Shown: positions 20,292 to 40,586, counted from the stretch's first letter. The stretch: DNA of 64,000 bases from an uncultured Methanosarcinaceae archaeon (GCA_963833425.1 CAWHXP010000005.1:128001-192000), one strand, 5' to 3'. A program made the numbers and translations. The notes: generated from the sequence alone by a model not told the origin.

Positions 20292-20326
20292 ATTTATGTT
20301 GTCCTTTCAAAAATCGATTACCCTTT

Positions 20327-21030: not shown

Positions 21031-21273
21031 AATTTTTCCACCATTAAACTTAATGAAATTACACATTTTCTGGACAATTCCTTTTCCTACAACTTTTGAA
21101 ACCCATAAATTTATAGCTAAGACGAATTCTAGGACAATGAAAATAGCAAATCACACTTGGTTTGAGATAACTGCCGATATGAACTACGGTAGATATAAGC
21201 CTGGAGATCATATTTAGACTTCTTGTTCCTCACGACATCGGCTTTTTCGGCTTTTGATCCTCTGTGGGAGTCT

Positions 21274-21630: not shown

Positions 21631-21652
21631 CGTCGAAGTCTCCCTTGCCCAC

Positions 21653-23005
21653 TTAGACAATGTCTGCTTTCCTTATTCGTGCCATCGCACCTTTATTTGC
21701 TTCCAGCGCCTTCCTCCTGAGTGCATCTTCGTATGTGAGCTTATCAAGCTCCTCTTTCTGCATCTCAACCTCGGAGCTCAATGCTGTTATCTGAGCATCC
21801 AGGAATTTTAGCTTACTTTCCAGTTCTCTTTTCCTCTGCACCACATTTTTGCTTTGAATTATAGACTCAGCCATCTCCTTAGCTTCCTGGACAGCTCTGG
21901 AAGACCCCATAAGCAGGCCTCCTGATGGTCCAAGGTAGACATCATGAATCTCTATGCCATTATCAGTCACCAGATATTCTCTGATCTGGTTGGAGTGTTT
22001 CATACCTCTTGACTTGATCACCGATATTCCAAGATTGCGCTAGCTATCATTCTCAAAGAAACGAAGATTGATCCAAGTATCCATAAGAGATGATATACCC
22101 TGAGCATTTATGCCATCTATATTTTCATTTTCTACCAGACTAGTGCATACTGCAGTGATATTCTTGAGCTTCAAGTAATCAACGACCCTTGTGAGCGTGA
22201 ACTTAACATTGGCTTCATCACCTACATTGATCATGTTGGATATAGGATCTATGACCAAGACTGCTGGTTTGAACCTATCTATCAGTCTGTGCATGGTTAC
22301 CAAATGCATTTCCAAACCATAGGCCATGGGCCGTTAAGCACTTATTTGCATTAAGCCAGTATCGACATAGTGCTGAAAGTCTATACCTATAGATCTCATA
22401 TTCCTGATTATCTGGCTTGGAGATTCCTCGAAAGCAAAGTATAGGCAGCTCTCTCCTCGCTCGCAGATAGCTTTGGCAAACTCGGCTGCAAAGCTGGTCT
22501 TGCCTGTGCCGGCTGTTCCGGAGATTAGTATGGTTGTGCCACGATAGTAGCCCTGACCACCAAGCATTGTATCCAAGCGCTTTATGCCCGTGGAGCCCCT
22601 CTATGCAGATACTTCATGCTCCAGACCTAGGGATGTAATTGGCAAAACAGATATCCCATCTTCTTCTATCAGGAAAGGATACTCGTTAGTACCGTGTTTG
22701 GATCCCCTGTACTTAATTATCCTCAGGCGTCTGGTGGCTATTTGATTCTCCATCCTATTATCGAGAAGGATAACGCAGTCTGCAACATACTCTTCAAGTC
22801 CGTATCTAGTGAGAGACGTTTCTCCCCGTTCGCCAGTGACTATAGCCGTCACGCCCTTCGTATTAAGCCAGCGGAAGAGCCTACGTAGCTCAGAACGCAG
22901 TATAGCTTCATTCTTGAACCCAGCGAATAAAACTTCTAGAGTATCGATAGCCACACGCTTGGCATCTATAGAATCTATAGCCGACCCAAGTATGATGAAT
23001 AGACC
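21653..23005 (-). pseudogene. kaiC: KaiC 3' portion (rest of CI domain, CII domain, C-terminal coiled extension) with three in-frame stops
   Basis: One frame: GLFIILGSAIDSIDAKRVAIDTLE...YGLEEYVADCV...KYRGSKH...GTAGTGKT...FEES...ISSLMDTW...KSRGMKHSNQIRE. Stops at 22601-22603 (TAG), 22334-22336 (TAA) and 22040-22042 (TAG). Confidence 0.93.
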
Positions 23006-23017
23006 TTATAGGTCTAT
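22999..23017. other. Integrase-proximal attachment site of the integrated element
   Basis: Palindrome ATAGAC-CTTATAG-GTCTAT exactly where KaiC homology stops; its core CCTTATAG matches CCTTCTAG at 40222-40229. Confidence 0.85.
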
Positions 23018-23059
23018 ATACTAAAAATTTATAGTCCTTAACTTCTATTAGATATATAC

Positions 23060-24271
23060 ATGACTAAATCTGTTGATGATGTTCATTGTATTGATGCGGA
23101 TTATTTACGCGCACAACATAAATTGAAAAATGCAGATATTGGGGAAGAAAACAAAGCGTTGATTGAAAATTTTTCAATTGCTCTTCGACGGGAAGGAGCA
23201 GTAAAAACAACAATCACGTGGTACTTGTATTATGCAACCAGGATGGTCGAGCAACTTCAAGAACTAGGATTCAATGAGACCTTGGACAAGCTGGACCAGA
23301 ATACTTTTGATAGGTTGCTTATTTTTTGTGAAGATGAAAAGAAATTCTCTCCAGGCACTATCAGAAATTATAAAAAATTGATCAAAAAATTCTTCAGATG
23401 GTCCACAGGTGGTAACCAGCCTAAATGGATTATGGATCTGAAGCTAAAAACAATTGAAAGCCCTGTGCAACCTTCGGACATACTGACCAAAGATGAGTTC
23501 ACCCGACTCCTTGAAGGCTGTAGACATCCAAGGGATAAAGCTATTATCGCTGTTCTTGCAGATAGCGGAATGAGAGTAGGGGCTATGATGTCCTGCAGGG
23601 TTAAAAATGTAGAGTTTAATCAATATGGAGCTATGATTTATCTTTCAAAAACAGGGGCTAACAAGACAACACCTGCAAAGGGGCTACCACTCACTTGGAG
23701 CGCGGGGTATTTGAATCAGTGGCTTGCAGTTCATCCTTTTCACGAAGATCCAGAAGCTCCCTTATGGATTACCCTTAACAAAAATAAAGAAGCTGTGAGT
23801 TATAAAGCTATCCGAAAAATGATAAAGACTACAGCCGAAAAAGTAGGCATCAAGAAAAGTATACATCCACATTTGCTACGACATATGGCTATAACAAACT
23901 GGATTTTAGATGGACTTAATGAACAAGAAATTAAGCACAGCGCGGGCTGGAGTCGGGGCAGTACTCAAATGTTCAAAATTTATGCAAATTTCACTGATCA
24001 CGAAATTAACAATAGTATTTTTGAGAAATATGGGCTCAAGACTGAAGACAAAAGACACGTTACACTTAAAAGATGCCCACGGTGTAATAATGTACTAAAA
24101 TCAGACGACAAATTTTGTAGCCAATGTGCACTGGTTCTCGATCAAGAAACCGCTCTAAAACTTGAAAAAGATAAAGAAAAACTAGATTTATCATTCTTAG
24201 AAGTTTCCAGTGTTGACCCAAAGGTTTTGGAAAAAATAGCAATCGAAGTCAAAAAACTCCTAAACCAGTAA
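23060..24271 (+). CDS. Tyrosine recombinase/integrase with C-terminal Zn ribbon
   Basis: Catalytic R (SGMRVG), HxxR (HLLRH), AGW and Y (FKIYA) all present; CPRC...CSQC ribbon. Confidence 0.95.
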   Translation: MTKSVDDVHCIDADYLRAQHKLKNADIGEENKALIENFSIALRREGAVKTTITWYLYYATRMVEQLQELGFNETLDKLDQNTFDRLLIFCEDEKKFSPGTIRNYKKLIKKFFRWSTGGNQPKWIMDLKLKTIESPVQPSDILTKDEFTRLLEGCRHPRDKAIIAVLADSGMRVGAMMSCRVKNVEFNQYGAMIYLSKTGANKTTPAKGLPLTWSAGYLNQWLAVHPFHEDPEAPLWITLNKNKEAVSYKAIRKMIKTTAEKVGIKKSIHPHLLRHMAITNWILDGLNEQEIKHSAGWSRGSTQMFKIYANFTDHEINNSIFEKYGLKTEDKRHVTLKRCPRCNNVLKSDDKFCSQCALVLDQETALKLEKDKEKLDLSFLEVSSVDPKVLEKIAIEVKKLLNQ

Positions 24272-24428
24272 ATAGTTAAGATATGTTCATAAAATTTCCT
24301 TTTTGTTCCTAATTATTGAATATTTCTGCTAATAATATGAAACTACTTTAATTGTATAGGGTAAAACGCTTGCTGGTTTAAATTTATAATTGTTTTTATT
24401 TAATCAAAAAAGTTGGAAACTTGTCAGA

Positions 24429-25491
24429 TTAATCTGTATCAACATTTGGTACCCAGCTTTCAAACCTATCCTGTTTCTTCTGTGCCATTTCGCGCGTTTT
24501 ACGAAATATCATTTTAGTCATGTCTTTGTTAAAAGTATGGTAAGTTACGTATTTTCCTCCTTTTTCTTCGAATTCTCTTTCTACTTCTTCAAGTTTGGGA
24601 TTTTCAATGGAAATTAATTTTTTCCCTTTAAGAAAACTAGGTACATCTTTACGCTCTCTATAATAATTTCTTAATCGCTGAATTTCTGCATCTGATATTT
24701 CGTTTTTTGTTTGTTTTAAGTATTCTATGGCTTCATTATTCGCTTGTCCTTTCAACATATCTATGGAAACACATGCTTCAAATGCTATATTGATACTGAA
24801 GGTTGTTCCACATATTGCCATCCAGTTGTTTGGATTACGAAGATATTCCCAACTAGTTAGGTGTATAACGTTTTCTGATAATTCAATTAATTTTTTAATA
24901 TCAGCTATTAATTTATTTTTGTCATTGGTAAGAAACAGTATGAAAAATTCAGGGGATAACCATAATTTTTCCTTAAACTTTTGTTTGGTTTTTTCAAAAA
25001 GTGTATCTTCTCTATGTTCCACCCAATCCTTTCGACTTGAATCATAAGTTGAATATGAGCCAAGTGTGGTAGTTATTGTAAACTTTATGGGTAAGCCTTT
25101 ATTTACTCTTTCTCCAAATGTGCTATCCAAATAATCCATATCATTTGAACCATAAATTAAATCTGAATACTCGGAAAATATGCTTTCGAGGATGTGATCG
25201 TTCCTTTGCATTTTTGACAATAAGTGTGGATATTCTTTCAGTATACGACTTAGATTCTGAATACTGAATACAATTGAATATAATTTAGGAAGGTTTCCGA
25301 ATTTTTCTGATTTTACCTTCTCACCTTCAATGCACCCATATGTTTCTAGTTTTGTTAATCTCTATAAATCATATTGTAACGTGGATTACCTTTTGGATCT
25401 ACAAATTTTAGTTCCTTTGCTGACTCTCCAGTAGTTTTTGAAGATTCTAATAGACTACCTAAAATTAGCCTTTGAGTCTTTTCTTTTTCAT
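24429..25491 (-). pseudogene. Winged-helix regulator-like gene with frameshifted N-terminus; 263-aa C-terminal part open
   Basis: Upstream of the 24429-25220 ORF, shifted frames read KTQRLILGSLLESSKTTGESAKELKF...YNMIYRD / KLETYGCIEG... and LYSIVFSIQNLSRILKEYPHLL, which runs in frame into the ORF. Confidence 0.55.
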
Positions 25492-25799
25492 GATTATCTT
25501 CTGTCATATTCTGTAGATAGTTCTAATTTCTATTATAATATGTTTGGGAATAACAGATTAATGTCTAATAGTCGACAACTTGTGATATTTTGTCGATTAA
25601 AAATTAATATAAATGTCTAACGCCTATTCTAGCTTGTATTAAAATAACAATAAGGGAAAGTATGCGAATGAGCTGTAAAGTTAAAATAAAAATTTTGAAT
25701 ACATTTGATTATTTGTTTATCCCGATGTGGCATTTTCCCCTAAATTCGTGTGATTTGTCGTTACAGCCAATTAATAGACTATCCCATTAAGGTGAAAGC

Positions 25800-25934
25800 A
25801 TGTTTAGATTTGGAAAAAGAACTGTGATAAAGCAAGGTGGGAGTTATATGATTTCGCTCTCGATGACATGGATGAAAGCAATGGATATAGATGTAAAAAC
25901 TGTGATGATCGACATGGACAGCGAAATCATCTGA
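25800..25934 (+). CDS. AbrB/SpoVT-like small DNA-binding protein (3' end possibly frameshifted)
   Basis: Manual translation MFRFGKRTVIKQGGSYMISLSMTWMKAMDIDVKTVMIDMDSEII after an AAGGTGA RBS; swapped-hairpin pattern. Confidence 0.65.
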   Translation: MFRFGKRTVIKQGGSYMISLSMTWMKAMDIDVKTVMIDMDSEII

Positions 25935-26046
25935 AAATTATGGCAGGTGACACTCGCAATGAAAACACAGTCTCTTAAATTTACACCCAAGAGTTTGATA
26001 GCTGTAGGCTCGAAAAGATCTAATGCATCCTGGAAAAGGGAAACAA

Positions 26047-26268
26047 ATGTACGATCTAAAACCAAAAACTGTAGCTATGTTTAAAAAATTTTACACGGAA
26101 TTTCCCGAATTGATTAATTATCGAATAAAGTGCGGAAATATGTATGAGAAGGCTCAGGCAATATTAATAAAAAATGTTGCTGAGAGTGTTTCGCAAAATC
26201 CCGCAGCGGCCAAGCAGTCGGAAGTTTCGCAAAACATCACAACGGATGCCTACCTTCATAACAAATGA
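26047..26268 (+). CDS. Hypothetical protein of the element
   Basis: Open frame MYDLKPKTVAMFKKFYTEFPELINYRIKCG..., co-oriented with neighbours. Confidence 0.55.
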   Translation: MYDLKPKTVAMFKKFYTEFPELINYRIKCGNMYEKAQAILIKNVAESVSQNPAAAKQSEVSQNITTDAYLHNK

Positions 26269-26484
26269 TCCACGAGAACAGATCGACCCAGAAATGAAAA
26301 GTGATGCACAATGAAGAAGATAGTCCACAAAGTAATAATGATTTTCCTTTTTAGCCCTGCCACTAACAATTACATGCAAAGCCTAAAGACTTTTGATTCC
26401 AAAACGAATATTTTTTAGGATATCTATTAATTTTGATGGTACTGAAAGCGTTAAATTTCATTCTAAAATATAGATAATTATAAA

Positions 26485-26889
26485 GTGATTATTATGGATT
26501 ACAAAAATGAGTTAACTCTTCAATGCAAAGAAAATTTAACTTCGTTATCAGACGAGTACATGATTGGAATAACTGACGCCAGTTATAGGCATATCGATGA
26601 AATACTTAATTCTTTATCCATAATGTTGGAGAATCATTTATCTCAAGTAAACGCTCGTCGGGAGCCAAAAATATATGGAGTACTCAGTTCACTGACACTA
26701 AAAACGATTATGTTATCTGACTTAATTACACAAAGCGCAGAAGAATATGTATCCTTGGACATTCTTAAAGTGTTACTAGAAGGTGTGGCGGTGCACGATA
26801 TCTTCCAAAAAGGGGATTCTGTGAAAATCGAAGTGCTGGAAGATAACGCATTGAAGATTTCCGGTGAACAAACTAGAGAAAAGCGATAA
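26485..26889 (+). CDS. Hypothetical protein of the element
   Basis: 134-aa open frame with protein-like composition. Confidence 0.6.
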   Translation: MIIMDYKNELTLQCKENLTSLSDEYMIGITDASYRHIDEILNSLSIMLENHLSQVNARREPKIYGVLSSLTLKTIMLSDLITQSAEEYVSLDILKVLLEGVAVHDIFQKGDSVKIEVLEDNALKISGEQTREKR

Positions 26890-27070
26890 AGATAACAAAA
26901 ATTGAGAGATTCGAGCCCAGGACAGCTTGAGACCTGTCCTAGGTGATTAGGTTCGTCATCTTCAGCGACTGAACTACTATAAATTATACTTCATGGTTTA
27001 TAATAATATCTTATTTTGATGACGGTTCTAATGCCTATGGGTTCTTTGTTCTCTCATAATTCAAGAGAGG

Positions 27071-27355
27071 ATGAACTCCATGACATATTCTATATCTAGG
27101 CAAACTAATATTAGTAATTTTTTTCACAGTTATGATAATACCAAATCTCAAATTACTTTCGAGTCCCTTGTCACATCCACAGATGGATACAAATGCAAGG
27201 TGCCTTGTCAAAATAATAATTTTTGTTATTCTTGTCAAAGACAGGATTGTTCTAGACGTACCGATCCCTATGACTTGTGGTGGATTCCAGAAGAGCCTGA
27301 TGATTGCTCAAGAGCAGATATTGCAAGAACTTATCGCTTAGGAGAAGGGTTTTAA
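27071..27355 (+). CDS. Small Cys-containing hypothetical protein
   Basis: GAGAGG RBS; CKVPC...CYSC...C; stop overlaps the next ATG. Confidence 0.5.
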   Translation: MNSMTYSISRQTNISNFFHSYDNTKSQITFESLVTSTDGYKCKVPCQNNNFCYSCQRQDCSRRTDPYDLWWIPEEPDDCSRADIARTYRLGEGF

Positions 27356-27894
27356 TGCCAAGCTTTTCAAGTCTGGAATATAACTTTAGAGAGGATCTAC
27401 GATCCATTATCTCTATAAACTCCACACGGAGCCTGAAATATATCAGGAAGAGCAGCAGGACAGGAAAGTATAGGAGAATGGCTCATCTACTTTTGATGCT
27501 GGCATATAACTGGTCTGGATCTTCGAGCCTGGTCTCTATGAATATGCTGATGCTTAAGTTCTTGAAGAGCATTAGAAGGCATGCAGGATTCGAGAATAGA
27601 GAGAAGATAGGCAAGGAAACACAAGCAACAGACTACATCGTGAACTTCACCTTAAACGAGGTCTTCCAAAGTAATGAATTTAGTCTTCGCCAATGCATAC
27701 CAGAAGCAGCATGTGCTAGAATACGTTATTTTTTTATGATTTTGGGGGTATGGAATGAACTTTGATTCTCTTGATAAGGTTTATTCTGAGCACAACAGAA
27801 GAATTCCAATATCTCATAAATTTAAAACGAGTGCCTGATCAGTCCTTTTCGATTTTATCGATTACGATCTGCAGCCTGAAGGAAGGTTGGAAAG

Positions 27895-30128
27895 ATGAGT
27901 TATGACACCGCAATGCTTGAAGCTGCATTAAATTATTCAAGATTAGGACTGATAGTGCATCCTTTACTGAACCCCAATGCACCTGAAATAAACCCTGAAA
28001 CAGGAAAAGAACAAAGCCCAGGTAAAGGAGTTTTGGTAAAAGCCTGGCAGAAAAGGGAAAGTGCCTTAACGGAAAGAGAAATAGAAAAATATTGGGGACC
28101 TAGTAGGAGTTCTTACTTTGAGAATGCAAATATTGGCTTGCAATGCGGGAAAAGATCAGGTATTACCCTAATCGATGTGGACGACTGGAACCCTGCAATA
28201 TGGAACGAACTCACAGCCGGATTATCTCTAGATAATTGGCTCATGTCAAAGAGAACAACGGACCAGGGCCATATTTTCTTTAAATACATCGAAGCTCTGA
28301 AAGCTCAAAAGCATCATGATTTAGGCATAGAAATTTTAACAGATGGCAATAATGCAGTCCTACCCCCAAGCAGGCATAAAAGCGGGAAAATTTACTCATT
28401 TAACCGGGAAATCAGGGCATTTGAAGATATACCAGAAGTGCCTGAAGAACTAATAAACAGGCTTAATGCCCTGTTTGTAACCAATAATAAGTTAAAAGTG
28501 ATCTTGTAAAAATGCAAGCTCTGTCTACGTGAAAAATTCAAGGCCCATCAGGAAAGCCCGGATATCAAGGAATTGCACACCAGCACAGGCAGACAGTTAA
28601 CCCTGTCGCTGATGGCAGACATGAAGGCAAATGGTGCAGACCCTGAAGTTTTACACCTTGCCTGTAAATACCTTTTTAGAGATAATTACACCCGGTCACA
28701 CAGTGATTATGAATTGGGTATGGACGGAAGCAAAATCGAAAAACCTTGGAAATGTGAAACTATACAGAGAGCGTTAGGAAGCATCATACTTGATAAAGCC
28801 CTTAAATCAAAATGTGATAATTGTACTTTCAGAGAGCAGAGAAAACAGGTAGATAACCAGAAGAAACCCGAGCCAGAAGCTCAAAAGGATAATCCCCTAA
28901 ATATAGACTATGATGAAATGGACCTAAGCCCCGAACTTATCCAGAAGGCAGATGAGGAAGCAGACAGGATATTAAGAGAAGGTGACCCTATAGACTGTAT
29001 ACTGAACACAATATCAAAAAAGCATGTCGGTGACCGGGATACACAAGAAGCAATGTGCATATCAATAGCCTGTCAGTGTTGTCTTAATACCGCAGGCTTG
29101 CAAATATCCGTAAATGGTACTTCTGGCTCAGGAAAGTCACATGGAATAAAAACACATTTACATTTAATTCCTAAAAAACGGAAACGCATAACGGGGTTAA
29201 GCGCGAAGGCTGCTTATTATATGAATTTAACCCCTGGTATTATTATTTTTTCGGACGATAAGGATCCTGACCCTGCATTTGAAGAAGTCATAAAACAGGC
29301 AACAACGAACTTTCAGGAAGAAACTTACTACACAACGGTTAGAGATCAAAAACAAATATCTTTGGTAATCCCATCCCGTATAAATTGGTACTTAACGAAC
29401 GTCGAAAGCTTCGTATCGGATCAATTGCTTAATCGCCAACTCACCTTTGATGCAGACAGTAGTCCTGAGCAGAAAAAAAGGATATTTGATGCACAGAAAC
29501 ACGAAGCTGCAATCGGTGGGAATGGGCAGGAGATGAACATTGAAGTGCTTATATGCAGAAGACTGTATGGAGCACTTAAACAGAATTTATTTAAGGTTAA
29601 AATACCCTTTGTGGATAGGATAGACCTGCAGGATACAAGTAATTCGCGTATATTCCCAATGTTCCTTGATATGGTCGGGGGTTTGCTGCTTTCAAATGTA
29701 AGCAGAGAACCTTTGACGACGGTGGATATTTACTAGCTGAGGTTGAAGACTTTGAAAGAGCAAAAAGATTATTCGAATCTCAAAAAGAAAACACAGTAAC
29801 AAAAATGAACGAAAATGAGAGACAGATAATCCAATGTATAGCGAGTAAAGGTAAATGCACAATTAACGATATATCAAGCTATACAGACATTAAATATCAA
29901 AGTGTGAGACGAGCCTTGGTTGGTAGGACAGACAGAGACGTCGATGGGCTCCTTGACAAGATTAAGGGATTAAAAATGGAAGAAGAAACCGATACTAATT
30001 ATGAGAGAGCTGGAGACATATTAAGAAGCAGTAGTGGAAAGAAGGTTCTTAAGTTCAGCATAGACAAATCAAAGTTTGATTACTGGTCACTCTTTGATAA
30101 GGAGTTTATCTTCCTGAAGGCCGCCTGA
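27895..30128 (+). pseudogene. Replication protein: Prim-Pol (AEP) domain, Cys-containing middle domain, P-loop NTPase and C-terminal wHTH; one nonsense codon and one frameshift
   Basis: NIGLQCGKRSGITLIDVDD, GHIFFKY and AVLPPSRH (bifunctional primase-polymerase motifs); in-frame TAA at 28507-28509; Walker A GTSGSGKS; a frameshift near 29680 joins the 29805-30128 wHTH ORF. Confidence 0.85.
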
Positions 30129-30156
30129 TCTATGCACAAAGGCAACTGATTCTTTT

Positions 30157-30440
30157 ATTCCCCAATTTCCCTTTTTTTCCAAAATATTCCCATTGTTTTC
30201 CCATTAAAACTTAATCAGTTGACATTTTGTTCCCAAAAACCCGAAAATGCAAGAAAAAAAAAGAAAATACACTTTTGACATTCTAATATTTTGGATATTA
30301 CTTTAAAATATCATATATCATTTTTTTACTTTTGGGAACATGACTCCCTTTTTTTATGAATTTTAATTACCTTGTTATTGTTTTTATATTATTTTTAATG
30401 GGAATATAATGGGAAAATAGCGGGAATAATTGGGGACTAT
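30157..30440. repeat. Nested inverted arrays of TTCCCA motifs around an AT-rich centre (candidate replication origin)
   Basis: TCCCCAATT...TTCCCATT...TTCCCATTAAAA on the left mirrors TTTTAATGGGAA...AATGGGAA...AATTGGGGA on the right; inner 11-bp inverted repeat TGTTCCCAAAA (30228) / TTTTGGGAACA (30330). Confidence 0.6.
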
Positions 30441-30711
30441 TGGAAATATAACTAGCGGAAGACATACTTAATTAAAAAAGATATATGAATGAACAGGGTT
30501 AGACTAAATGTCACATTTTTGTATGTTATATTTTTAAAATTTCCCCGTTTAAACTTCTTCCATCAAAATTTTCTACATAACCAGCTATTCAAGCATCAAA
30601 ATATTATCAATAACCATTACCATTACTAAGTGATAATAAAGTATAAATACTAATAAATCGCATATAGTAGCGCAGTTTCTTGAAAATAGACGGTCTGGTG
30701 GATCACATAAT

Positions 30712-30936
30712 ATGAAAGGCGGTAAAACAAGATTTCAACAGAAGTTTACAGAAGACATGTTCCTGAATGCTCTAGCAATTGACAGTATCAAGTCAACTGC
30801 GACTATTATGAATTTAGTAGGATGCAGCAGGTCCACAGCTAAAAACATGCTTTATAAGCTTGTAAATGAAGGTAAAGTAAATAAAATAGAAATTGAAGGC
30901 GACGGTTACGGTTGGCAGAAAGTGAAAGGTGATTAA
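30712..30936 (+). CDS. Small winged-helix protein
   Basis: STATIMNLVGCSRSTAKNMLYKLVNEGKV helix-turn-helix with a YGW wing. Confidence 0.75.
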   Translation: MKGGKTRFQQKFTEDMFLNALAIDSIKSTATIMNLVGCSRSTAKNMLYKLVNEGKVNKIEIEGDGYGWQKVKGD

Positions 30937-31327: not shown

Positions 31328-31739
31328 TTCGTAGATATTTGACTGGAAAGTTGACTAATTGACAATCACTTCTAACATTCAATTTTTTTGTTTAATTACA
31401 GCCATAAGTCTTTCCACACTAGTAAATAAATTATTTAGTTTTTATTATTTTAAAGTAATAAAAATATATGAAAAATCTCGAGAACCTATCCCAAGTTCTC
31501 AGTGCATAGATTTATGGAGGCTTGGTTCTGTCGAAAAAATGGCTTAATCTGGGGACACTAGAGTGACTTTTATTAGGAGTCCCTTAGAAGATATGATTAG
31601 CCTAGTCAAAAAACGACTGAAAATGGCTCATTGTTAATTAATCTAGTCAAAGCCTTGCCTTAATGCATAAAAGAACTAAAGAAACATTTAATACAAGATT
31701 CACTAATATTAACTATTAAAAATAAAAAACGGTGTTATC

Positions 31740-32189
31740 ATGCCACGTCCTACAAAGCTCACTCCCGAAGTACAACAGAAAATCGGTGATGGTGTACCTC
31801 TCGGATTAACTTATGCTCTCGCTGCTAATTCAGCAGGTCTGACTTATCAGGCGTTCAATGATTGGATGAAACTGGGAAGAAATTCAACATCAGGAAAGTA
31901 CTTTGAATTCTATCAACATATTGAAAAATGTAATGCTGATGCCGCAAAGGTTCTTCTTGAACGGTTAAATAATGCAGCTGCAGTTGGAAATTGCCAGGTT
32001 TCCATGTGGATTTTGGAGAGAAGGTTCCCTGAAGAATTTGGACGGAGAGTATATAGAAAAACTAATGTTGTTGCAGAAAACCTGAATCAAAATGTCGAGA
32101 TAAGCTTCAGGGACGCAGACAAAATTAGAAAACAAATTCTAGAGAAGTTTGATCTGGTTGCAGAAAGTAATGAGTTATCAGTTGATTAA
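31740..32189 (+). CDS. Terminase small subunit-like HTH protein
   Basis: MPRPTKLTPEVQQKI N-terminus, AANSAGLTYQAFNDW helix-turn-helix, helical middle and WILERRFPEEFGRR: a pattern recalled from phage TerS-like proteins. Confidence 0.6.
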   Translation: MPRPTKLTPEVQQKIGDGVPLGLTYALAANSAGLTYQAFNDWMKLGRNSTSGKYFEFYQHIEKCNADAAKVLLERLNNAAAVGNCQVSMWILERRFPEEFGRRVYRKTNVVAENLNQNVEISFRDADKIRKQILEKFDLVAESNELSVD

Positions 32190-32215
32190 TTTTTCAGTTT
32201 AACTTAACATATTTT

Positions 32216-33067
32216 GGTTCCGTTGCAAAAACTTCAAAATAAGCATGTAAATCTATAAGTAATAAATAAAAATCAAAATATTCAAGGAAAATGTACCAAC
32301 ATTATAAAACTATACCAAACAATTGATTAATGTATTTGACTTCATTAAGAACAGAGTATTTTAGATTCTTGATTTGTCCTTTATTGATCATATTCATGGC
32401 TTCAATTCCTTTTAAAGTCTTATTAGCAGTAGAAAAGACTGAAATCCTAACATTGGATTAACGATTCGCTTTATAGATCTATGATCTTGTTCTATACTGT
32501 TATTCAAATGCTTGATTTATCTAATGCCTACGTTTTTAGGTAGTATTTTATCATTTTTCAGTTCATCTATAGCAGGGGGATAAGCTGGATTCTTATCAAC
32601 GGCTATTACTCTTGGAATTTGATTATGGTTAGAACTCAAAGCTTTATTAAAGAATCTCTTCGCTACTTTTCTATTTCGTTTTGAACTTAACATGAAATCA
32701 ATTGTATCTCCATTTGAGTCAACTGCTCGATAAAAATAGTCCCATTTACCTTTTACTTTGATATAGGTTTCAGCAACTCTCCACGAATCATTTGTTGGTC
32801 TTAAATGTCTTCTTATCTTCTTTTCTATTTCAGGGGAATATTGATGTACCTATCTCATTATAGTACTGTGATCAACTTGAATTCCTCTTTCTATCATCAT
32901 TTCCTTTAAATTTCTATAGCTCAATGGATATTTTAAGTACCATCTCACATTCAATAGGATAATTTCTCCTTCATAATGCTTCCATTTATAGGAATTAGAT
33001 AGCATATCACTATCTTTGGTTTTTTTATTCTATTGTATCATTAGAAAGGATTTTTTGCAACGGAATC
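32216..33067 (-). mobile_element. IS6-family insertion sequence with pseudogenised transposase
   Basis: Terminal repeats GGTTCCGTTGCAAAAA / TTTTTGCAACGGAATC; 852 bp; from 33005: YKWKHYEGEIILLNVRWYLKYPLSYRNL...DHSTIMR*V...SWRVAETYIKVKGKW..YRAVD. Confidence 0.93.
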
Positions 33068-33336
33068 TAATTTTCAACTGGTTTAAAGGGAAGGCACTTA
33101 TTAATGTTGCCCTTAGAGCTTATCCAAAAAGTGTTGTAACCTACTGTAATATTTACGGTTCGTCGCTGTTCCTAAACCTTAAAGAGACGCATCGTGCTTG
33201 CAATCTGCATGTTCATAGGCCAGGAATTTTTGCATTGACCGGCCTGGCTCGCAGCATGGGAACTGTCCATGAAGCAATCCTTTCCTCGCTCCTTATAACC
33301 TTTGTTACCATTTCAATGATCCAGATCTCTTCCGTC

Positions 33337-33485
33337 GGTTCCGTTGCAAAAATAATTTTACTGCCTTTTTAGGTTATAACTATTGCTTTTTGTATCATTA
33401 TTGACTTGTTTATGGCACATAAATATCCTATATGTGATGTTTTTTACTTGTTTTGTAAAATAGTCAGATTTTTTGTAACGGAACC
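33337..33485. mobile_element. 149-bp MITE with IS6-type terminal repeats
   Basis: GGTTCCGTTGCAAAAA...TTTTTGTAACGGAACC; near-identical to the copies at 62483 and 62676. Confidence 0.88.
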
Positions 33486-33647
33486 AATAATCTTGTAGCT
33501 ATGCGTTCCTGTAAAAATATTAATTTTAACCTAAGACTGTTCATATATAGGCTATCATCCCTTCTTCTGTTTTTAAAGATGTAAGTATAGTTTTTTTATT
33601 TCGGCTTTTATTTTGAGTATCTCTTGTTCGTCTTTTCTTTTAGATTA

Positions 33648-34517
33648 TTATCTAGTGGATACAAATATATAATTATTATTCATATTTTTGGAATCGAGAA
33701 AGTCCTCCTTTAAAATGTAGCCATTACTAAGCAAAATTTTTTGTACTTGTGTATATTTGTCTCCAAAAGATTCAATCCAAATGGTCGGTTTATATTTTTG
33801 AATAGTTAACGAAGCTCCCTTTAATACTTCAACTTCGAATCCTTCAACATCGATTTTGATAAAGTCAATCATTTTTTCATTTATTTTCACATCATCTAAT
33901 TTTTTCAATTTTAAATTTCCATTTTCATCTTCTTTTATCGAAGTACCTCCTAAATTATTACTCAAATTACCATCATAATCTATTGAAGCTCTGCAAGTTT
34001 TTGAACCTAAAGCAAAATTGTATATTTCAACTTTGGAAGTTAATTCATTTAATTCGACATTCTTTTTCAACACATTAAACAAATCATCCCTAGGTTCAAA
34101 AGCATATATATTTTTAGCTCCTAATATTTTCCCAAAATACAGAACATGATTTCCAACATTACTTCCAATATCTATTATAACAGAGTTTTTATCGATGTAT
34201 TTTTCCATAGTTCTTAAGATATCAATCTCATAAAACTTTTTAGTTGTGATAATACTCTTCTGAATAAAATCTCTTTTGTTGGGTAAGAATATTTTTATTG
34301 TCTGATAAGTAAAGTTATTTTTCTTTTCATTAATAGTAAATATATTATCTTTATTGTTAAGCCTGGTGATAGTCTCTAAACAATTAATATATAATTGACT
34401 CATATCATTTAAATAAAGATATATTTGGTATAAATGCTGAATTTTCTTTCCACTAGCACGGGCTTTTTCTTTTCTCTCAAAAATTATCTCTTTTAAAGTT
34501 ATTTTAATTTCCTCCAT
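33648..34517 (-). CDS. FkbM-family SAM-dependent methyltransferase
   Basis: IIDIGSNVGNH, IYAFEP, NFALGS, IDFIKIDVEGFEVEVLKGA. Confidence 0.9.
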   Translation of the reverse strand: MEEIKITLKEIIFERKEKARASGKKIQHLYQIYLYLNDMSQLYINCLETITRLNNKDNIFTINEKKNNFTYQTIKIFLPNKRDFIQKSIITTKKFYEIDILRTMEKYIDKNSVIIDIGSNVGNHVLYFGKILGAKNIYAFEPRDDLFNVLKKNVELNELTSKVEIYNFALGSKTCRASIDYDGNLSNNLGGTSIKEDENGNLKLKKLDDVKINEKMIDFIKIDVEGFEVEVLKGASLTIQKYKPTIWIESFGDKYTQVQKILLSNGYILKEDFLDSKNMNNNYIFVSTR

Positions 34518-34808
34518 CAAAGTGATTATTTTTATTGACTGATCTATTTAACTATGTACTAACATTGTATCCATAGAGAATTATTAAGATTTATGTGCTT
34601 TAAGGAAGAATAACTTCGATATTTGCTTATCCTTGTTGGTACTCTATTCTTGAGGTTGTTTACTCAAAGAAACCTTAATTTTGGACTTATTCAATTTAGC
34701 CTTGAAACCTTTAGACGAAAAAAAAATCTTAGCCTTGAAGCTGTAAGAGTTTTAATTTGATACTTATGTCGCGCTAGAAGGTTCACTGTCATACAAACAA
34801 GTTGCACT

Positions 34809-35246
34809 TCATACTACAGGTACAAAAGCACCGCCATAATCGCCGTTGTTAGGTCTGCTGCGCTTAGCTCTAAAATTTCTGGCATGGGTTGGGCGTCCAT
34901 GGATAACATTTATCGAAACATGCGCTGATGCATTACTGTAATTTGTAATATCATTAGGTATGAAATCAGCTTGTAATGTCTGCGTACCTACACTCAGTAA
35001 AGTTCCTAGGGGTGGAGTATAGACAAAGGTTCCAGGTATTGCGGCTTTAGATGCTGGATCCGAAGCAAATGCATTTAGCTGCGTGCTGTTCAATGTTTTT
35101 CCATAGATTATGTCAGCAGGACTATTCTAAATAATTATTGAGATAACCCGCTGCGTTGCGACCGCTTCAGCTGAGATCCCCACTAGCATTAAAATTATAG
35201 CTGTTGAGACTAAAGCTATCGAATAAAATTTATGTTCATCGATCAC
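34809..35246 (-). pseudogene. Secreted Ig-like repeat protein with one in-frame amber codon
   Basis: Signal-like FYSIALVSTAIILMLVGISAEA, then II*NSPADIIYGKTLNSTQLNA...PGTFVYTPPLGTLLSVGTQTL..DFIPND; TAG at 35127-35129, probably replacing Trp. Confidence 0.6.
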
Positions 35247-36099
35247 GTATTTTTACTCTTTTCCCATATTATTAAAGCTAGAAATAATGAGACAGTTATA
35301 TTTGATATCAAATACTTCTCAATATATTTCTAGTAGTGCAGCATCTCTAATTTTTGATATCCAATAAGCTATTAAAGCGATTATAATTGAAAAATTTTAT
35401 ATTGTTTTTTAGTAATTCTAGATTAAAAATGTTAGAATATTGCAAAAGCAAGCATAAATCATAGAAAGCAATACTTTGGGAAGTAAACTTGTTGCATATT
35501 TTATGTAATATGTGTCTTCATTTATACAAATTTATTGTCCAATTAGAGATAGATAGTCTCTCACTGTGGCTATGAATTAAAATGGGTTTAAGTTATAACA
35601 TTTCAATAGTACATATCATTCCCATAACAATTAGCACTAAACCAGTACCTTCCACATATTTCAAATTTTTCTCGGAGAGCCCAATTTCGATATAGTTGTT
35701 TTGTTTAAGTGTGAACAATATTCCTGTTTTATTAAAAGAACACTCAATCTTAAGTAATGTTTTATCAGGTTTTGTTTCATCAGGTCTTTGTGGGATCGCT
35801 TTTGATTAGTTGGATCCTTGGGTACATATGGGAGAGAACCTATAAACTGGCCGAAAGCCTTGTGTTGTATTTCCATTCCATGGCTGTAATATTGTTCGTT
35901 GCTGTGTCGATACAGGAACGGTGCCTTGTGACCATTTGACACATATGCTTTTGTTCTACACTTGGCGAAAAAAGCACGTGTGTGCATAAAAATATTCAAT
36001 TTTGGATAATTTTTTATAGTTAGACCAGGTGTTGGGACATACCCGATTGCTTGCAGCGAGGTGTGCACATCAAATTTGATGTGAAAAATTCATTATTTA

Positions 36100-36340
36100 A
36101 TTAGAAAAATCAATGATGACCCAATTACACCCTTAAAAGAAAGAAAGCGAAGAGAAAATACAGGAATAATTTCACTTAATTTTTTATAATATTAAATATG
36201 ATGAAAAGAGTGTAGTCGAGACAATTGTTTCTGTCTACAAAAGGAAATTTGGAAAAGTACTTAGGACAAGAAAGTTCCGTAACCAATTGTAAAAGTAAAC
36301 TTTAAACTGATAATTTATAACATAAATAAAGAGTATTTGA
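36100..36340 (+). mobile_element. IS5-like transposase C-terminal remnant
   Basis: Degenerate SVVETIVSVYKRKFGKVLRTRKFRNQ. Confidence 0.45.
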
Positions 36341-36662
36341 ACTAATTTGGATTAAATCAAAGATTTTTACATATACTATCTTCCAAAACAATTTTAGTAT
36401 CAACTTCCTTTTTTTTGTTTAATTTCTTCTATCGTTAATGTTAGCAAATAAGCAGCCGAAACTTATATACGGGACTAGCGTCGAAGTCGATGCTTGCATC
36501 CAATGGGCTGAAGACCTAGTGGTTTTATGCTTTGTCCTATTTAATTGTCAATACACCATTATAGAACTTAAATTGATGCTTAATCTGGAAAAAGATGTCT
36601 ATTTAATGAACTATTATCATTTTTGCCAATATGTTGAAATATAACTAATAAAAATATAACTG

Positions 36663-38159
36663 ATGTTTTGGACCATGTATAACATAACTGCCATCTATTC
36701 TAATATCCTTAAAATAGATCCTATCAAGCGCCAGAGTATAATATCATTGTTCTGGCAGATAGCATTCACAGCTATAGGTTTTCTGAGTACAATGTACTTC
36801 GCACGTACCGTAGGTGCTACAGTTCTCGGTGCATATTTTCTGTTTTAATCATACAACGGCATTTTTAATTTGGTTACAGACGGGGGATTTGGTGGAGCCG
36901 CAACCAAACGTATCAGTGAAGGAAAAGAACCTGATGAATATTTTAGTGCATCTATTATACTTCGGTTAGCATTCACTATACTCGTAGTACTCATTTTGCT
37001 CGTGTTTAAAGATTATTTTGTCGAGATTAATTACTCAGGTATATTTGTCTGGCTGCTGCTTTCATTGCTGGTAACTATGATTGCGGGTACTATAGCAAAC
37101 GGAGTTGCCGGCATGGGTAAAATTGGAATACACAACACCTGTATTGGCATAAAAAATATTTCATGTGTCCTATTTCAGATCCCGGCAATATATCTCGGAT
37201 ATGAGACTGCAGGTCTGGCTGGAGGTATGGTGGCTGGAGCAGTAGTGGCAGCAATAATTGAATTTCGTTTTTTCGATTTGCGTTTCGTAAGTTTCAAATG
37301 GGTCCACATAAAAAGTTTATCAGTATTTTCATTTTGGTTATTTTTAACTACTAGTGGAATGATGGTGTTTTCGCAGGCTGATACTATTATCATTGGACAT
37401 TTATTAGACATGGTCAATGTAGGCATTTACAGGATTACGCTCCAGTTCACAATGGTTGCTTCATTTAGCACAAATGCAATACGCTATACGCTTTGGCCCC
37501 GTATCAGCCGCTGGGGTAAAACTAACGAAATTGATATGGTGGAGGCGTCCCTGTCACGTGCTATTAGCTACTCATTGATACTGGCAATTCCTGTGTTTGT
37601 GGGTGGTGTTTTATTGGGTGATCGCCTGCTACTTCAATTCTATGGTGCAGACTTTGCTCGTGGCTACCAAACATTAATAATACTACTTGCTGTACAAGTG
37701 GTTAATGTATTCCAGTTTTTATTTACCATGTACCTGGATGCTCTAGATAATCCTAAAGAATCGTTTAAAGTAACTGCAATTGGCGTTGTTGCAAATATCG
37801 TGTTGAATTTTATACTAATTCCAATTATAGGTGTAAGCGGTGCAGCAATCGCAACTCTAACAACAATGATATTAAATGTTTTACTCGCAAGACGTTCATT
37901 ATCAAAACTTATGAAAATACGAGTGGAGCATCACAGCCTGTTGAATATTTCTATGGCTTCGATTGTAATGGGAGCACTGGTAGGTGGGTATCGTTTACTT
38001 ATACCACTTTCCAATATATGGATTACACTGGGTGCCGTTATTGTCGGAGGGGTGGCATATAGTGTCCTTGTACTGAAACTTGATAGACAGATTTGTAATG
38101 ATCTGCGAAAAATTGTGGAAGGGATGGGTATTGGAGTGATATGGCCTGGATGGTTGTAA
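36663..38159 (+). pseudogene. Wzx/MOP-family oligosaccharide flippase with one in-frame TAA
   Basis: YFARTVGATVLGAYFLF*SYNGIFNLVTDGGFGGA...ADTIIIG...VGIYR...NIVLNFILIPIIGVSGAAIAT; many transmembrane segments; TAA at 36846-36848. Confidence 0.85.
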
Positions 38160-38164
38160 ATTGT

Positions 38165-38509
38165 GGTTCCGTTGCAAAAATTCAAGAAAATATGTAGATC
38201 TATAAATAATGAATAAAAATCAAAATATTCAAGGAAAATGTACCAACATTATAAAACTATACCTAACAATTGATTAATGTATTTGACTTCATTAAGAACA
38301 GAGTAATTTAAATTATTGACTTGTCTTTTTTTAACCGTATTCATAGCTTCAATTACTTTTAAAGTCTTATTAGCAGATCGAAAAGATTGAAATCCTAACA
38401 TTGGATTAACGATTCGCTTTAATAGATCTAAGATCTTGTTCTATAATGTTATTCAAATATCTGGTTTGTCTTATTTCAATATTTTTGAACAAGTTCTTCT
38501 TATTTTCAG
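38165..38509 (-). mobile_element. Second IS6 copy (3' end only), same orientation as the first
   Basis: Begins GGTTCCGTTGCAAAAA and closely parallels 32216-32560. Confidence 0.88.
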
Positions 38510-38657
38510 GGTTATGGTGCAAAAATAATATTTCCGTAATGTGATGCTATAATTCTTACCTTTTGTATTATTTTTCCCTTGATGTTATTAATTAAATTTC
38601 CTAATTATGAAGTTTTCATTGATTTTGCAACAAAGACAGATTTTTTGCACCAGAACC
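38510..38657. mobile_element. 148-bp MITE of a diverged subfamily, abutting the truncated IS6
   Basis: GGTTATGGTGCAAAAA...TTTTTGCACCAGAACC terminal repeats; same length as the other MITEs. Confidence 0.7.
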
Positions 38658-39162
38658 GCTTTTGACTTAGAAAGTATGCAACAAAGAAAAGAAAAATAAA
38701 GAATTAATTTAAAAATAAAAATGCATTTAATTAGCGAAGATGACAAGACTAATCTAAAATGTCAAAAAGTTGATCTTGTAGCTGCAGGGGATGAGAATCC
38801 TGCAGCTTGATACAATGCCCAAGTAAAGGTTCCAGAAAACCTTTGTATTAAAACTAGATTTAATTTTATATATATTTTTTGCATATATTCTAAATACTAC
38901 TAACCTAAACTAATTAGTAATTGAAATTAAGTATTCCATATCTCGTAATTGTAACATAAGATAGCTGTTCAATGTTAGTCAATAAATGACTTAATCTCAT
39001 GTCCTACAACAGACTGATAATTAATTTTAAGTGAAAATCGCCCTAACTCACTCGAGAAAGTGCCATAAATCGCCCCACAATCGCTCTTCTCCTGCTCTAT
39101 ATATTACCAGAATTCACATTTTATTATGTTTTTTTCAATTAGCAGTATATTAATTTATATAA

Positions 39163-39474
39163 TTTTAAAGTAATAAAAGTATATGGAAAATATCTCGTGG
39201 GTACTTACCGTGCAAAGCCGGCAAAATATGGGGATTCAGTTTTGTCGGGAAACGACTTATTCTCAGGCTCTTGCGAGACTTTTATTGAGAGTCCCATAAA
39301 TTCATTGCCCTGCTTAGAAAATGTCTCTAACGACCTTATAATGACTCCTATTTGATTTGATACGACGCATATACATCCCACTTGCATGCAGAACAAAAAT
39401 AACTTAATATTAAATACAAGCTTAGCTAATATTAATCATAAAAAATAAAAAACGGTGTTCACAATGGCACGTCC
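39163..39474 (+). repeat. Diverged direct repeat of 31448-31750 (region upstream of the terS-like gene plus its first codons)
   Basis: Shared blocks TTTTAAAGTAATAAAA.TATATG, GACTTTTATT..GAGTCCC and TAATATTAA...AAAAATAAAAAACGGTGTT...ATG(C/G)CACGTCC. Confidence 0.75.
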
Positions 39475-40202
39475 ATCATTACTATTATAAGGGGTGATTT
39501 TAATATGGCAGAGGAAAAAGATTAAAGTGAACAGGGAGAACTTAATAAGGATTCTCTGAAATCATTGCTTAAAGAAAAGCAAAGAAAACAGGTTCGTTCA
39601 GATTATCGGCGTAGTCTGGGCAGCGAAGCTGGTAGAAGATATAAGGAATGAGTTAATAAAAAAAATATTAAAGTATAATGATTTAATACATTATGCAGAA
39701 CAGATCGATAAGTTTTCAAAAATAAGTTAGATACTGTTGGTATGTTCAACATCAACAGTATTTCTCTACCCAATTCATGATGAACTTTGATTTCCATAAT
39801 AGTCAATTTTCACAACACTCATACCCATATACCAAGTTCTATCATATTGCAATTGAGCATTCTTTGGATGTGCGTTTAATAGATTTACTATTTTTTTGTC
39901 TCAATGTCCCTACCTTTAACAATTTCTATATCCTGATAGACCAACGAATTATTAAATATCGTTGAACTATACTCATACTTAAGCTCATTAGAAATCAAAT
40001 TCTAATCACTTGGATTTGTAGTTATCTTTTGATCATCATTAAATAGATATATAGTTACAGATGAATATGTATAACCCGATGAAACTACTTTTAGGCAATT
40101 TATTAGTACTCGTTTATCAACTCCTACTCCCGCTTCAACACGCTCCAATGTAAAAGCAAAAAAATCCATAAAACTTTGAGAAATAATATTTACTTAGGAA
40201 TA

Positions 40203-40586
40203 TTAAAAATATTTTGATAGTCCTTCTAGATCATATTCGCCAGTTTCTTCGATATCGCTCTTATTAATGTAAATATAGTCCACTGCCAGCTTCTTACTAG
40301 CCACCAAATCATCTAAACAAAATCCCAGTGAAGCAAAATTCTGGACCAATTCATCATAGGTTTCTTCAAAAGCTATAAAGACTCCTGGCTCGTCGTAATT
40401 TTGGGCTCCCCTGACAAGGAACTCCATGGCCATAAGTGTCTTTCCGGAACCTGCACTTCCATATACCAGTGTCGTACGACCTTTTGGCAATCCACCATCA
40501 GTGATATCATCAAAACCATCTATGCCAATTGGAGATTTTTCAAGATGCGCTTCTGTTGAAGTTGGGCTCTTTTCTTCAATCATCAA
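40203..40586 (-). pseudogene. kaiC: KaiC 5' portion (N-terminal part of CI domain)
   Basis: LEKSPIGIDGFDDITDGGLPKGRTTLVYGSAGSGKT...FEET...EETGEYDLEGL, then unrelated SKYF* from element sequence. Confidence 0.93.
40217..40235. other. Integrase-distal attachment site
   Basis: ATAGTC-CTTCTAG-ATCATA, where the KaiC N-terminal fragment ends (YDLEGL). Confidence 0.85.

Follow-up and report, generated by a model that had tools for sequence, protein, structure and literature searches.

A multi-copy integrase element of peat Methanosarcina in a split kaiC gene: a probable one-off insertion at a secondary site

In the window (the whole 64,000-nucleotide stretch of archaeal DNA analysed here), an insert of 17,218 bp interrupts a minus-strand kaiC ortholog with two domains, between the codons for EYDLEG and those for LFI. 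The insert belongs to a multi-copy family of integrase/prim-pol elements in peat Methanosarcina and very probably entered kaiC a single time, through site-specific recombination of the tyrosine recombinase type that used a secondary (pseudo-att) site. We could observe a precise split, a repeat at the junctions, an intact integrase, uninterrupted orthologs, sibling elements at other places and lesions in the gene, its operon and the element. The integrase's relatives occupy many different sites elsewhere, none of them in kaiC, so that the case reads as a single, ordinary gene knockout rather than as a gene switch.

The interrupted gene and its operon

On the minus strand, the 5' part of kaiC reads GGC GAA TAT GAT CTA GAA GGA CTA (within 40100-40700) and then passes into element DNA, and the 3' part resumes from 23014 with GAC CTA TAA GGT CTA TTC ATC. 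Along the 231 positions of the Pfam KaiC model, the 5' ORF covers 2-109 (E 4.7e-31) and the first 3' ORF covers 124-230. A second KaiC domain is matched downstream of the split domain 1. This reading and the Pfam coverage of both pieces confirm the two halves as an earlier note on this DNA had described and placed them (Table 1). With two domains and a Walker A motif kept in each (GSAGSGKT in the 5' fragment, GTAGTGKT in the 3' fragment), the gene has the organization of the two-domain RecA-like ATPase KaiC. The same note had predicted a continuous frame with both Walker A motifs on joining the halves; a deletion of 17,218 bp in silico does restore the frame, colinear with orthologs of 571–589 aa. 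The alignment with uninterrupted relatives that it had proposed gave a clear result, since the gene runs through the junction in 11 of 11 same-genus loci, and both halves from the window overlap on the same ~16 nt. The 3' half does contain three nonsense codons, at 22601-22603 (TAG), 22334-22336 (TAA) and 22040-22042 (TAG); both TAG positions are Glu in all 10 aligned relatives.

Table 1. Features of the split kaiC locus and of the inserted element (positions in the window)
Feature	Position	Strand	Details
PAS histidine kinase	18642-20291	-	in-frame TAG 19887-19889 and TAA 19179-19181
kaiB-c	20327-20569	-	Kai operon member
kaiB-b	20682-21087	-	frameshifted
kaiB-a	21274-21660	-	intact
remainder of Kai operon	18642..21660	-	three kaiB and PAS histidine kinase, as above
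kaiC 3' fragment	21653-23014	-	domain 1 (second half) and domain 2; 76–81% aa identity to relatives
left junction core	22999..23014	+	ATAGACC-TTATAG-GTC: kaiC DNA, 6-nt spacer, then element left end GGTCTATATAC...
tyrosine integrase	23060..24271	+	403 aa, intact; C-terminal zinc ribbon; Pfam Phage_integrase (PF00589), E 1.2e-20
broken replication gene	27895..30128	+	prim-pol 27895-28509, P-loop part 28573-29736, wHTH part 29805-30128
149-aa HTH protein	31740..32189	+	PHROG 4102 'terminase small subunit', E 4.8e-22; no Pfam match
MITE-like dispersed repeat	32211..33070	+	terminal inverted repeats GGTTCCGTTGCAAAAA / TTTTTGCAACGGAA; ~860 bp
FkbM-family methyltransferase (cargo)	33648..34520	-	Pfam PF05050, E 1.1e-16
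host-like block	34787..38163	+	93.6% identical to C2:291452-294838
polysaccharide flippase-like ORF, N-truncated	36870-38159		within host-like block; Pfam Polysacc_synt/MurJ/MatE
partial copy of 860-bp MITE	38160..38506	+	
conserved right arm of element family	38507..40224	+	ends ...AAATATTTTGATAGTCC
right junction core	40217..40232	+	ATAGTCC-TTCTAG-ATC: element right-end arm, 6-nt spacer, then kaiC DNA
kaiC 5' piece	40221-40586	-	ORF 40203-40586; kaiC-derived codons to ~40221, then 5 element codons and stop

The genome is a MAG from a metagenome (80% complete, 4.07 Mb) in which the element is repeated at 90–97% identity. A contig mis-joined via this multi-copy DNA, with kaiC really uninterrupted, would be a trivial explanation. 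However, the kaiC halves stop exactly where the att core passes into the left and right ends of the element, with order and strand both correct. The left junction is also bridged, with one mismatch, by a separate Logan contig of 196 nt, though its run may itself be the source sample. An assembly artefact is hence hardly credible. The 17-kb interior with its dispersed repeats could be partly mis-assembled; the two junctions are independent of that.

Decay affects both the Kai operon and the element. We infer that the insertion was the inactivating event and that the element did not land in an already dead gene. It is possible that the operon was a cluster of pseudogenes at the time of landing, so that the insertion was neutral; lesions are spread across four operon genes, and most siblings from the close clade occupy DNA that is non-coding or degraded (next to 20 other junctions of this clade, no open frame exceeds 77 aa). 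Nothing speaks directly against this order of events, but we consider it rather unlikely, as the lesion density in the replication gene of the element is similar to that in the operon, which fits comparable ages and hints that the insertion came first.

Junctions and attachment core

The junctions are marked by an imperfect direct repeat of 16 nt on the plus strand, ATAGACCTTATAGGTC (22999-23014) and ATAGTCCTTCTAGATC (40217-40232), with 13 of 16 positions identical. It exceeds the length of the core given in the earlier note, whose plus-strand cores CCTTCTAG (40222-40229) and CCTTATAG (23004-23011) are found in the sequence, 17,218 bp apart. A degenerate 16-mer, ATAGWCCTTNTAGRTC, has three matches in the entire genome, namely the two kaiC junctions and one junction of a sibling element. 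Since it matches only element junctions (3/3 genome-wide), the junction repeat is not due to chance.

The kaiC codons resemble the dyad core of the element, ATAGWCC-N6-GRTC. The 6-nt spacers of the two kaiC junctions differ by one mismatch (TTATAG on the left, TTCTAG on the right), which would fit secondary-site integration. Sibling elements have their ends in common (right end ...GATAGTCC, left end GGTCTAT...) and vary in their 6-nt spacers. One version, TTATAG, is seen again at the left junctions of C5 and L049 and at the right junction of C10, as would be expected for a spacer version that is carried by the element. Over 24 close-clade junctions, the flanks follow a consensus of A (18/24), pyrimidine (23/24), C (18/24), five variable bases and G (19/24), and the kaiC site fits it well.

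Reconstructed from the junctions only, the attP of the element would be the dyad ATAGTCC-TTATAG-GTCTAT. The kaiC codons for Y-D-L-E-G-L-F, which read ATAGACC-TTCTAG-(A/G)TCATA on the plus strand, would mimic this dyad. Strand exchange across six spacer nucleotides that differ at one position, where attP has A and kaiC has C, would then leave TTATAG on the left and TTCTAG on the right. The insertion would have cut the first KaiC domain, and operon and element would both have decayed afterwards, with no programmed excision. Integrases of the lambda type are known for integration at secondary (pseudo-att) sites of core-like sequence, where mismatches in the overlap are tolerated. The putative pseudo-att insertion in kaiC is similar in its core-like site and in junctions that keep different spacer versions.

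For the kaiC element, neither a free attP nor an empty-site molecule was seen. The sequencing data in which excision was sought were Logan contigs from soil, peat and permafrost metagenomes (best word share 0.46). No joint from ~23011 to ~40224 is among the 15 Logan joints listed (39 more are unlisted), which is uninformative as to whether excision occurs.

Relatives of the integrase and their sites

The integrase family is multi-copy, with four full-length copies in this genome. The three others are 99, 89 and 81% identical at the amino acid level, and none of them is located at kaiC. A further 70 homolog loci could be grouped into 47 distinct junctions, and in none of these groups does kaiC lie beside the integrase. 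The kaiC site did not recur: the flanks of 94 integrase homolog loci contain no KaiC homology, nor do those of 11 loci around six genus relatives. The C9 sibling adjoins tRNA-Gln(ttg), with an exact 15-nt repeat that equals this tRNA's 3' end. Distant family members carry the 3' ends of tRNA-Ala, -Glu or -Gln next to the integrase, and the close ones occupy varied, mostly non-coding sites with a common short degenerate motif. In a few peat Methanosarcina species, a genome harbors 3–5 element copies that are at least 70% identical; four species carry copies at this level of identity. The cargo of siblings includes genes for cobalt/nickel transport, SOD/fumarase/malic enzyme and surface polysaccharides.

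Could kaiC nevertheless be the dedicated primary attB of this integrase subclade, without any role as a switch, and the other copies be secondary? Nowhere else in the genome is the dyad core matched as well, and the 16-mer is confined to element junctions. However, the C10 copy (99% identical) and the metagenome copy L049 (95% identical) lie away from kaiC with the same TTATAG spacer, and the 47 junction groups all lie elsewhere. The likeness of kaiC to attP moreover rests on synonymous codon positions that vary among orthologs, for example with GGC or GGG in place of GGT for Gly, and GGTCTAT is present at the kaiC site in only 1 of 11 relatives. A primary site in kaiC is therefore very unlikely. 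The earlier note had proposed kaiC as the target of the integrase, and this holds for the insertion itself, which is in a protein-coding kaiC and at a near-palindromic motif. It does not hold for a dedicated target, with siblings elsewhere, one of them at tRNA-Gln, and 0 of 11 relatives occupied.

Recombinase-bearing elements that are excised during development, such as skin in Bacillus sigK and the nifD element of Anabaena, also split genes, and here too a precise excision would restore the reading frame. The earlier note had suggested an ancestral switch of this type, a domesticated element whose excision, under regulation, would have made kaiC whole again and turned on the Kai operon. The exact restoration of the frame in silico and the intact integrase ORF would be in line with it. 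We found no evidence for such a switch and regard it as extremely improbable. Unlike the known intervening elements, the kaiC element lacks conserved occupancy (0 of 11 relatives with a kaiC ortholog), and its siblings are located at many unrelated sites. The halves of the gene are not intact, the operon is broken (stops or a frameshift affect kaiC, a kaiB and the histidine kinase), the Rep of the element is broken as well, and its interior has been invaded by a MITE and host DNA. Integrase homologs at the same kaiC codon with intact halves, for which the note had advised to look, were absent from the 94 and 11 loci. What it had named as the outcome that would speak against its idea, a one-off secondary insertion with homologous integrases at other sites, is the one that we obtained.

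Content of the element and comparison with known systems

The integrase gene starts 45 nt inside the left end. Tyrosine recombinases share a catalytic set of R, K, HxxR, H/W and a Y nucleophile. In an alignment of 14 homologs, R172, K202/K207, H271, R274, H293/W297 and Y308 are invariant, and together with the PF00589 domain they identify the protein as a predicted tyrosine recombinase. It behaves like a classical (non-suicidal) archaeal integrase, with att outside int and an int gene that is intact after integration. A suicidal integrase of the SSV type was ruled out, as the ORF is not split by its own integration.

The prim-pol part of the replication gene matches Pfam Prim-Pol (E 9.8e-15). 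The gene is disrupted by an in-frame TAA (28510-28512) and a frameshift near 29700-29740; the C10 sibling has CAA at the TAA position and a single 595-aa ORF spanning the later parts. Replication proteins of the pRN1 type, with prim-pol, helicase and wHTH, are described from archaeal plasmids and small integrated elements (PMC4158269). The kaiC element resembles those described there in the order of its parts, prim-pol at the N-terminus and then P-loop and wHTH, and it has no capsid genes; it differs in that its replication gene has fallen apart into three ORFs. In the plasmid database, the P-loop part reaches only 25% identity, to the Rep of small Methanothermobacter plasmids. An IMG/VR scan with the integrase found no relatives.

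The 149-aa HTH protein has 752 homologs and 38 tblastn HSPs in its own genome; 16 among the 120 listed of the 752 are named 'transposase' by JGI. If the protein is a small terminase, as its PHROG match would have it, the element would carry the integrase, primase and small-terminase genes of a PICI-like phage satellite, a type that depends on a helper virus. At E values up to 5, Pfam gave nothing credible for the 149-, 263-, 132- and 134-aa ORFs. The dispersed repeat has the features of a MITE, a non-autonomous IS derivative: it is short and multi-copy (39 near-full copies in the genome, mean identity 91%), is bounded by terminal inverted repeats and lacks a transposase ORF (only ORFs of 51–58 aa inside). 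No Rfam family was found on 21000-41000, MITE included, and ARAGORN detected no tRNA in the window. Internal direct repeats had suggested two tandem elements, but in a genome-wide BLAST they proved to be dispersed MITE copies. Copies of the right arm are 92–96% identical and end at the same base (C10:65382, C8:119884, C9:74177).

The SNJ2-type integrases use a 14-bp core at the 3' end of a tRNA, as outlined in PMC5861418. The 15-nt tRNA-Gln core of the C9 sibling and the tRNA 3' ends of distant members are comparable to this description, whereas the close clade of the kaiC element has largely left tRNA genes. The best viral-database matches, to pleomorphic viruses of Geoglobus and Archaeoglobus, are only 29–31% identical. 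A 2021 review of archaeal tyrosine recombinases mentions elements with attB in coding genes, among them Halorubrum virus BJ1 (HMG-CoA reductase), Msmi-Pro1 (cation-efflux) and NitGar-E6 (AsnC regulator), and asks whether such targets show dyad symmetry (PMC8371274). The kaiC element shares with these the classical tyrosine integrase and the att site inside a coding gene, and its target does have dyad symmetry. However, its target is kaiC, a non-recurrent site, and other family members are found at tRNA 3' ends or degenerate non-coding sites. Among the literature matches listed for kaiC and integrase and for Methanosarcina integrative elements, no title or abstract dealt with kaiC as an integration target.

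As the gene-switch claim does not stand, this striking hypothesis can be set aside. What the locus offers is a base-resolved case of an archaeal integrase with a dyad-symmetric coding sequence as pseudo-att site, a question posed as open in the part of the review that treats such targets (PMC8371274). Tentatively, the kaiC match might also expose a targeting rule, by which this integrase clade has moved off tRNA genes to a short degenerate dyad (~ATAnYCC-N5-G beside GGTCTAT). Because the integrases would recognise only this dyad and tolerate spacer mismatch, the elements could multiply like transposons, hit coding genes that by chance mimic the dyad and gain host cargo, of which kilobases may have been acquired between the MITE and the conserved right arm. 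If true, tyrosine recombinases would thereby offer methanogens a way to shuffle genes. The finding suggests that a proliferating family of elements is reshaping the genomes of peat Methanosarcina, with a Kai-type signalling operon knocked out in one lineage.

One kaiC gene on either side of the element

The kaiC-derived sequence of the 5' ORF ends after ...EYDLEG(L), and the frame is picked up again on the minus strand at 23014 as DL*GLFIILGSAID.... The two 8-mers on which the earlier note had based its split of a single kaiC lie exactly where it placed them, 17,218 bp apart. When the 3' piece was used as a DNA query, kaiC orthologs came up in 11 of the 24 genomes from the same genus and in 0 of 16 others. 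The sequence is continuous across the junction position in all 11 relatives' loci, and in 10 of them the window's 5' piece adjoins the 3' piece with a BLAST overlap of ~16 nt; at the eleventh (locus L009), where the BLAST match to the 5' piece fell short of the E-value limit, the sequence likewise runs on across the junction. In nine relatives the kaiC ORF measures 571-589 aa; identity to these ORFs is 67-73% for the window's 5' half and 76-81% for its 3' half. Since the gene is unbroken in relatives and the KaiC-domain genes on contig C8 of the same genome are only 27-32% identical, the halves are one kaiC ortholog. The split is thus borne out by uninterrupted relatives in which the halves are contiguous, and an origin from different kaiC paralogs is ruled out. 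Another kaiC remnant, a separate short N-terminal fragment, lies at C15:44975-45157 of the same genome; it shares 65% identity with a relative's KaiC over residues 24-84 of the latter, and its Walker A is degenerate (GNAGLRKT).

Features of the interrupted kaiC locus and of the insert
Feature	Position	Strand	Remarks
Kai operon 3' of kaiC: three kaiB paralogs, PAS histidine kinase	18642-21660
kaiC 3' fragment: rest of domain 1, second KaiC domain	23014 to TAA at 21653	-	sequence reading, Pfam
In-frame stops in kaiC 3' part (3)	TAG 22601-22603; TAA 22334-22336; TAG 22040-22042
Left junction	22999-23014	+	ATAGACC-TTATAG-GTC, then element
Breaks in replication gene	TAA 28510-28512; frameshift near 29700-29740
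149-aa HTH gene	31740-32189		~20 other places in genome
MITE-like repeat, ~860 bp	32211-33070; partial copy 38160-38506		directly after 149-aa HTH gene
Second dispersed repeat, ~150 bp	33337-33485		28 near-full copies in genome
FkbM methyltransferase			after ~150-bp dispersed repeat
3.4-kb block incl. truncated flippase			93.6% identical to C2:291452-294838; then partial MITE copy
Right arm, 1.7 kb			92-96% identity kept at three other genome places
Right junction	40217-40232	+	ATAGTCC-TTCTAG-ATC, then kaiC
kaiC 5' fragment ORF, 127 codons	40203-40586	-	Pfam KaiC positions 2-109 of 231, E 4.7e-31; Walker A GSAGSGKT

The insert and its siblings

The tyrosine integrase is intact (403 aa) and starts 45 nt inward of the left end. 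Besides its Pfam Phage_integrase domain (E 1.2e-20) it has a SAM-like N-domain and, at the C-terminus, a zinc ribbon; R172, K202/K207, H271, R274, H293/W297 and Y308 show no variation among 14 homologs. Next comes a prim-pol/P-loop/wHTH replication gene, which a TAA and a frameshift divide into three ORFs. A 149-aa HTH protein matches 'small terminase' in PHROGs (E 4.8e-22) and has no Pfam match; 'transposase' is the JGI name of 16 of its homologs among the 120 matches listed. Its gene is present in very many copies, with 38 tblastn HSPs in this genome. Several siblings have it beside the right end, a place where one might expect a recombination directionality factor; it is absent from the right arm in the window (39470-39997). 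The MITE-like repeat has terminal inverted repeats GGTTCCGTTGCAAAAA/TTTTTGCAACGGAA and gives 109 BLAST hits in the 4.07-Mb genome, including 39 near-full copies of 91% mean identity. The ~150-bp repeat has a diverged relative at 38510-38657. Because the MITE, the dispersed repeat, the C2-like block and the conserved right arm all occur inside it, the 17.2 kb is composite, with later invaders and host-derived cargo added to an element backbone. Searches for tRNAs, Rfam families and capsid-like genes found none.

The same genome carries three further full-length integrase copies, on contigs C10 (99% aa identity), C20 (89%) and C9 (81%), none with KaiC-domain matches nearby. The C10 copy of the replication gene has CAA where the window has TAA, and the MITE has the same position there, so it is older than the split of these two elements. 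In both, the variable part has the MITE on one side and the right arm on the other. The C10 ends are 38 kb apart (G000:C10:65382-103780; L151, L152) and enclose CbiM/CbiQ/ABC cobalt-nickel transport genes, NikR, two nicotianamine-synthase-like genes and an IS240-type transposase. At C9, an exact 15-nt repeat, TATAGTCCTGAGCGG, marks both ends, the right one overlapping the 3' end of tRNA-Gln(ttg). This sibling spans 34 kb (G000:C9:40259-74177; L149, L150) with housekeeping-like genes (Cu/Zn SOD, fumarase, malic enzyme, isochorismatase, PfkB kinase, radical SAM and TPR proteins), brought together either as large cargo or by rearrangement at a later time. At G000:C6:142400-168000 the 29.5-31.3-kb region of the element recurs as several partial copies in a row, and a right end is followed by a degenerate left end; the stretch looks like a tandem array or a graveyard of related elements.

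Junctions and attachment core

Of the 16 positions, 13 are the same in both junctions. Across the 4.07-Mb assembly the degenerate 16-mer has three matches, namely both kaiC junctions and the right junction of the C10 sibling. Element copies have a common right end, ...TTTTGATAGTCC, and a common left end, GGTCTATA...TTTATAGTCCT, and are set off from host DNA by 6-nt spacers that differ among copies. An alignment of 24 distinct close-clade left junctions, anchored at the element end, gave a host-flank consensus of A at position -12 in 18/24, pyrimidine at -7 in 23/24 and C at -6 in 18/24, followed by five variable bases and G in 19/24. This consensus is a degenerate version of ATAGTCC, the arm at the right end of the element itself; from this resemblance we infer that attP would be the dyad ATAGTCC-N6-GGTCTAT. 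In kaiC, the codons TAT GAY CTN GAA GGN CTN TTC give ATAGACC-TTCNAG-GTCATA on the opposite strand. The fit rests on synonymous positions, GGTCTAT being present there in only 1 of 11 relatives.

The spacer TTATAG is seen at the C5 (window) left junction, the C10 right junction and the left junction of metagenome locus L049 (integrase 95% identical); the remaining junctions have TTCTAG (C5) and TTTTAG (C10). We read this pattern as the probable footprint of strand exchange across a spacer with one mismatch, which would leave one parental version at each junction.

Unoccupied TAGTCCTTATAG matches lie within coding sequence (…DGDADRVVLIDENGEF…) at G000:C3:5863 and C17:27657, and therefore other coding genes mimic half the att core without insertion; the two contigs are identical across the 140 nt compared. 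The host sequence AAATTCTAGG.GGCCTGATC is joined to an element left end in the flank of metagenome contig L049 and, inverted, to an element right end at G000:C8:119884. This suggests that a quasi-palindromic site accepts insertions in both orientations, or else that two copies have recombined by inversion.

Integration sites of the family and the proposed switch

The earlier note had proposed that the integrase targets kaiC. Around the copies from genus relatives (six of at least 59% identity, with 20 kb around each, or 12 and 18.7 kb where limited, plus five shorter loci around these six copies), KaiC homology was found at 0 of 11 loci, and likewise at none of 94 further loci from metagenome and species-genome collections, in 3-kb flanks. 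The 70 loci that include the N-terminus of the integrase together with 110 nt or more upstream of it fell into 47 distinct junction groups. In nine of these groups a 12-mer matches the 3' end of tRNA-Ala, -Glu or -Gln exactly, eight of the nine being among the 45-65%-identical members (Methanolobus, Methanococcoides and others); two Methanoperedens copies lie 55-59 nt from tRNA-Ala genes. Integrases of at least 71% identity all come from peat or soil Methanosarcina, and their junctions are nearly all non-tRNA and mutually different; the longest open frame adjoining 20 of them is 77 aa. Homologs thus sit at tRNA 3' ends in distant members and at varied sites in the close clade, and with the siblings lying elsewhere, targeting of kaiC is not supported by these comparisons.

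The three nonsense codons claimed for the 3' half are present, two TAG and one TAA. TAG may be readable as pyrrolysine in Methanosarcina, TAA not; both TAG positions are Glu in 10/10 aligned relatives. Downstream, the middle kaiB is frameshifted relative to its ortholog in a relative's genome (G017), and in the PAS histidine kinase a single 550-codon frame is interrupted by one TAG and one TAA. The operon has seven lesions: five nonsense substitutions, one frameshift and one insertion. Given the kaiC stops, the frameshifted kaiB, the kinase stops and the broken replication gene, operon and element both look long dead. One 196-nt metagenome contig bridges the left junction. None of the matches listed, all metagenome contigs, carries a joint across the element, which bears on neither excision nor its absence. 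Programmed intervening elements show conserved occupancy and intact gene halves. The kaiC element fails both testable features, with 11/11 relatives uninterrupted and three stops in the 3' half, and the idea that excision once switched on the Kai operon is not supported.

No report of kaiC as an integration target was found among the literature matches listed. Archaeal attB sites within protein-coding genes are already on record in section 19 of PMC8371274, which raises the question of dyad symmetry in such targets. The insertion into kaiC is real and of the same kind, with a clear dyad here, and its mechanism is ordinary.
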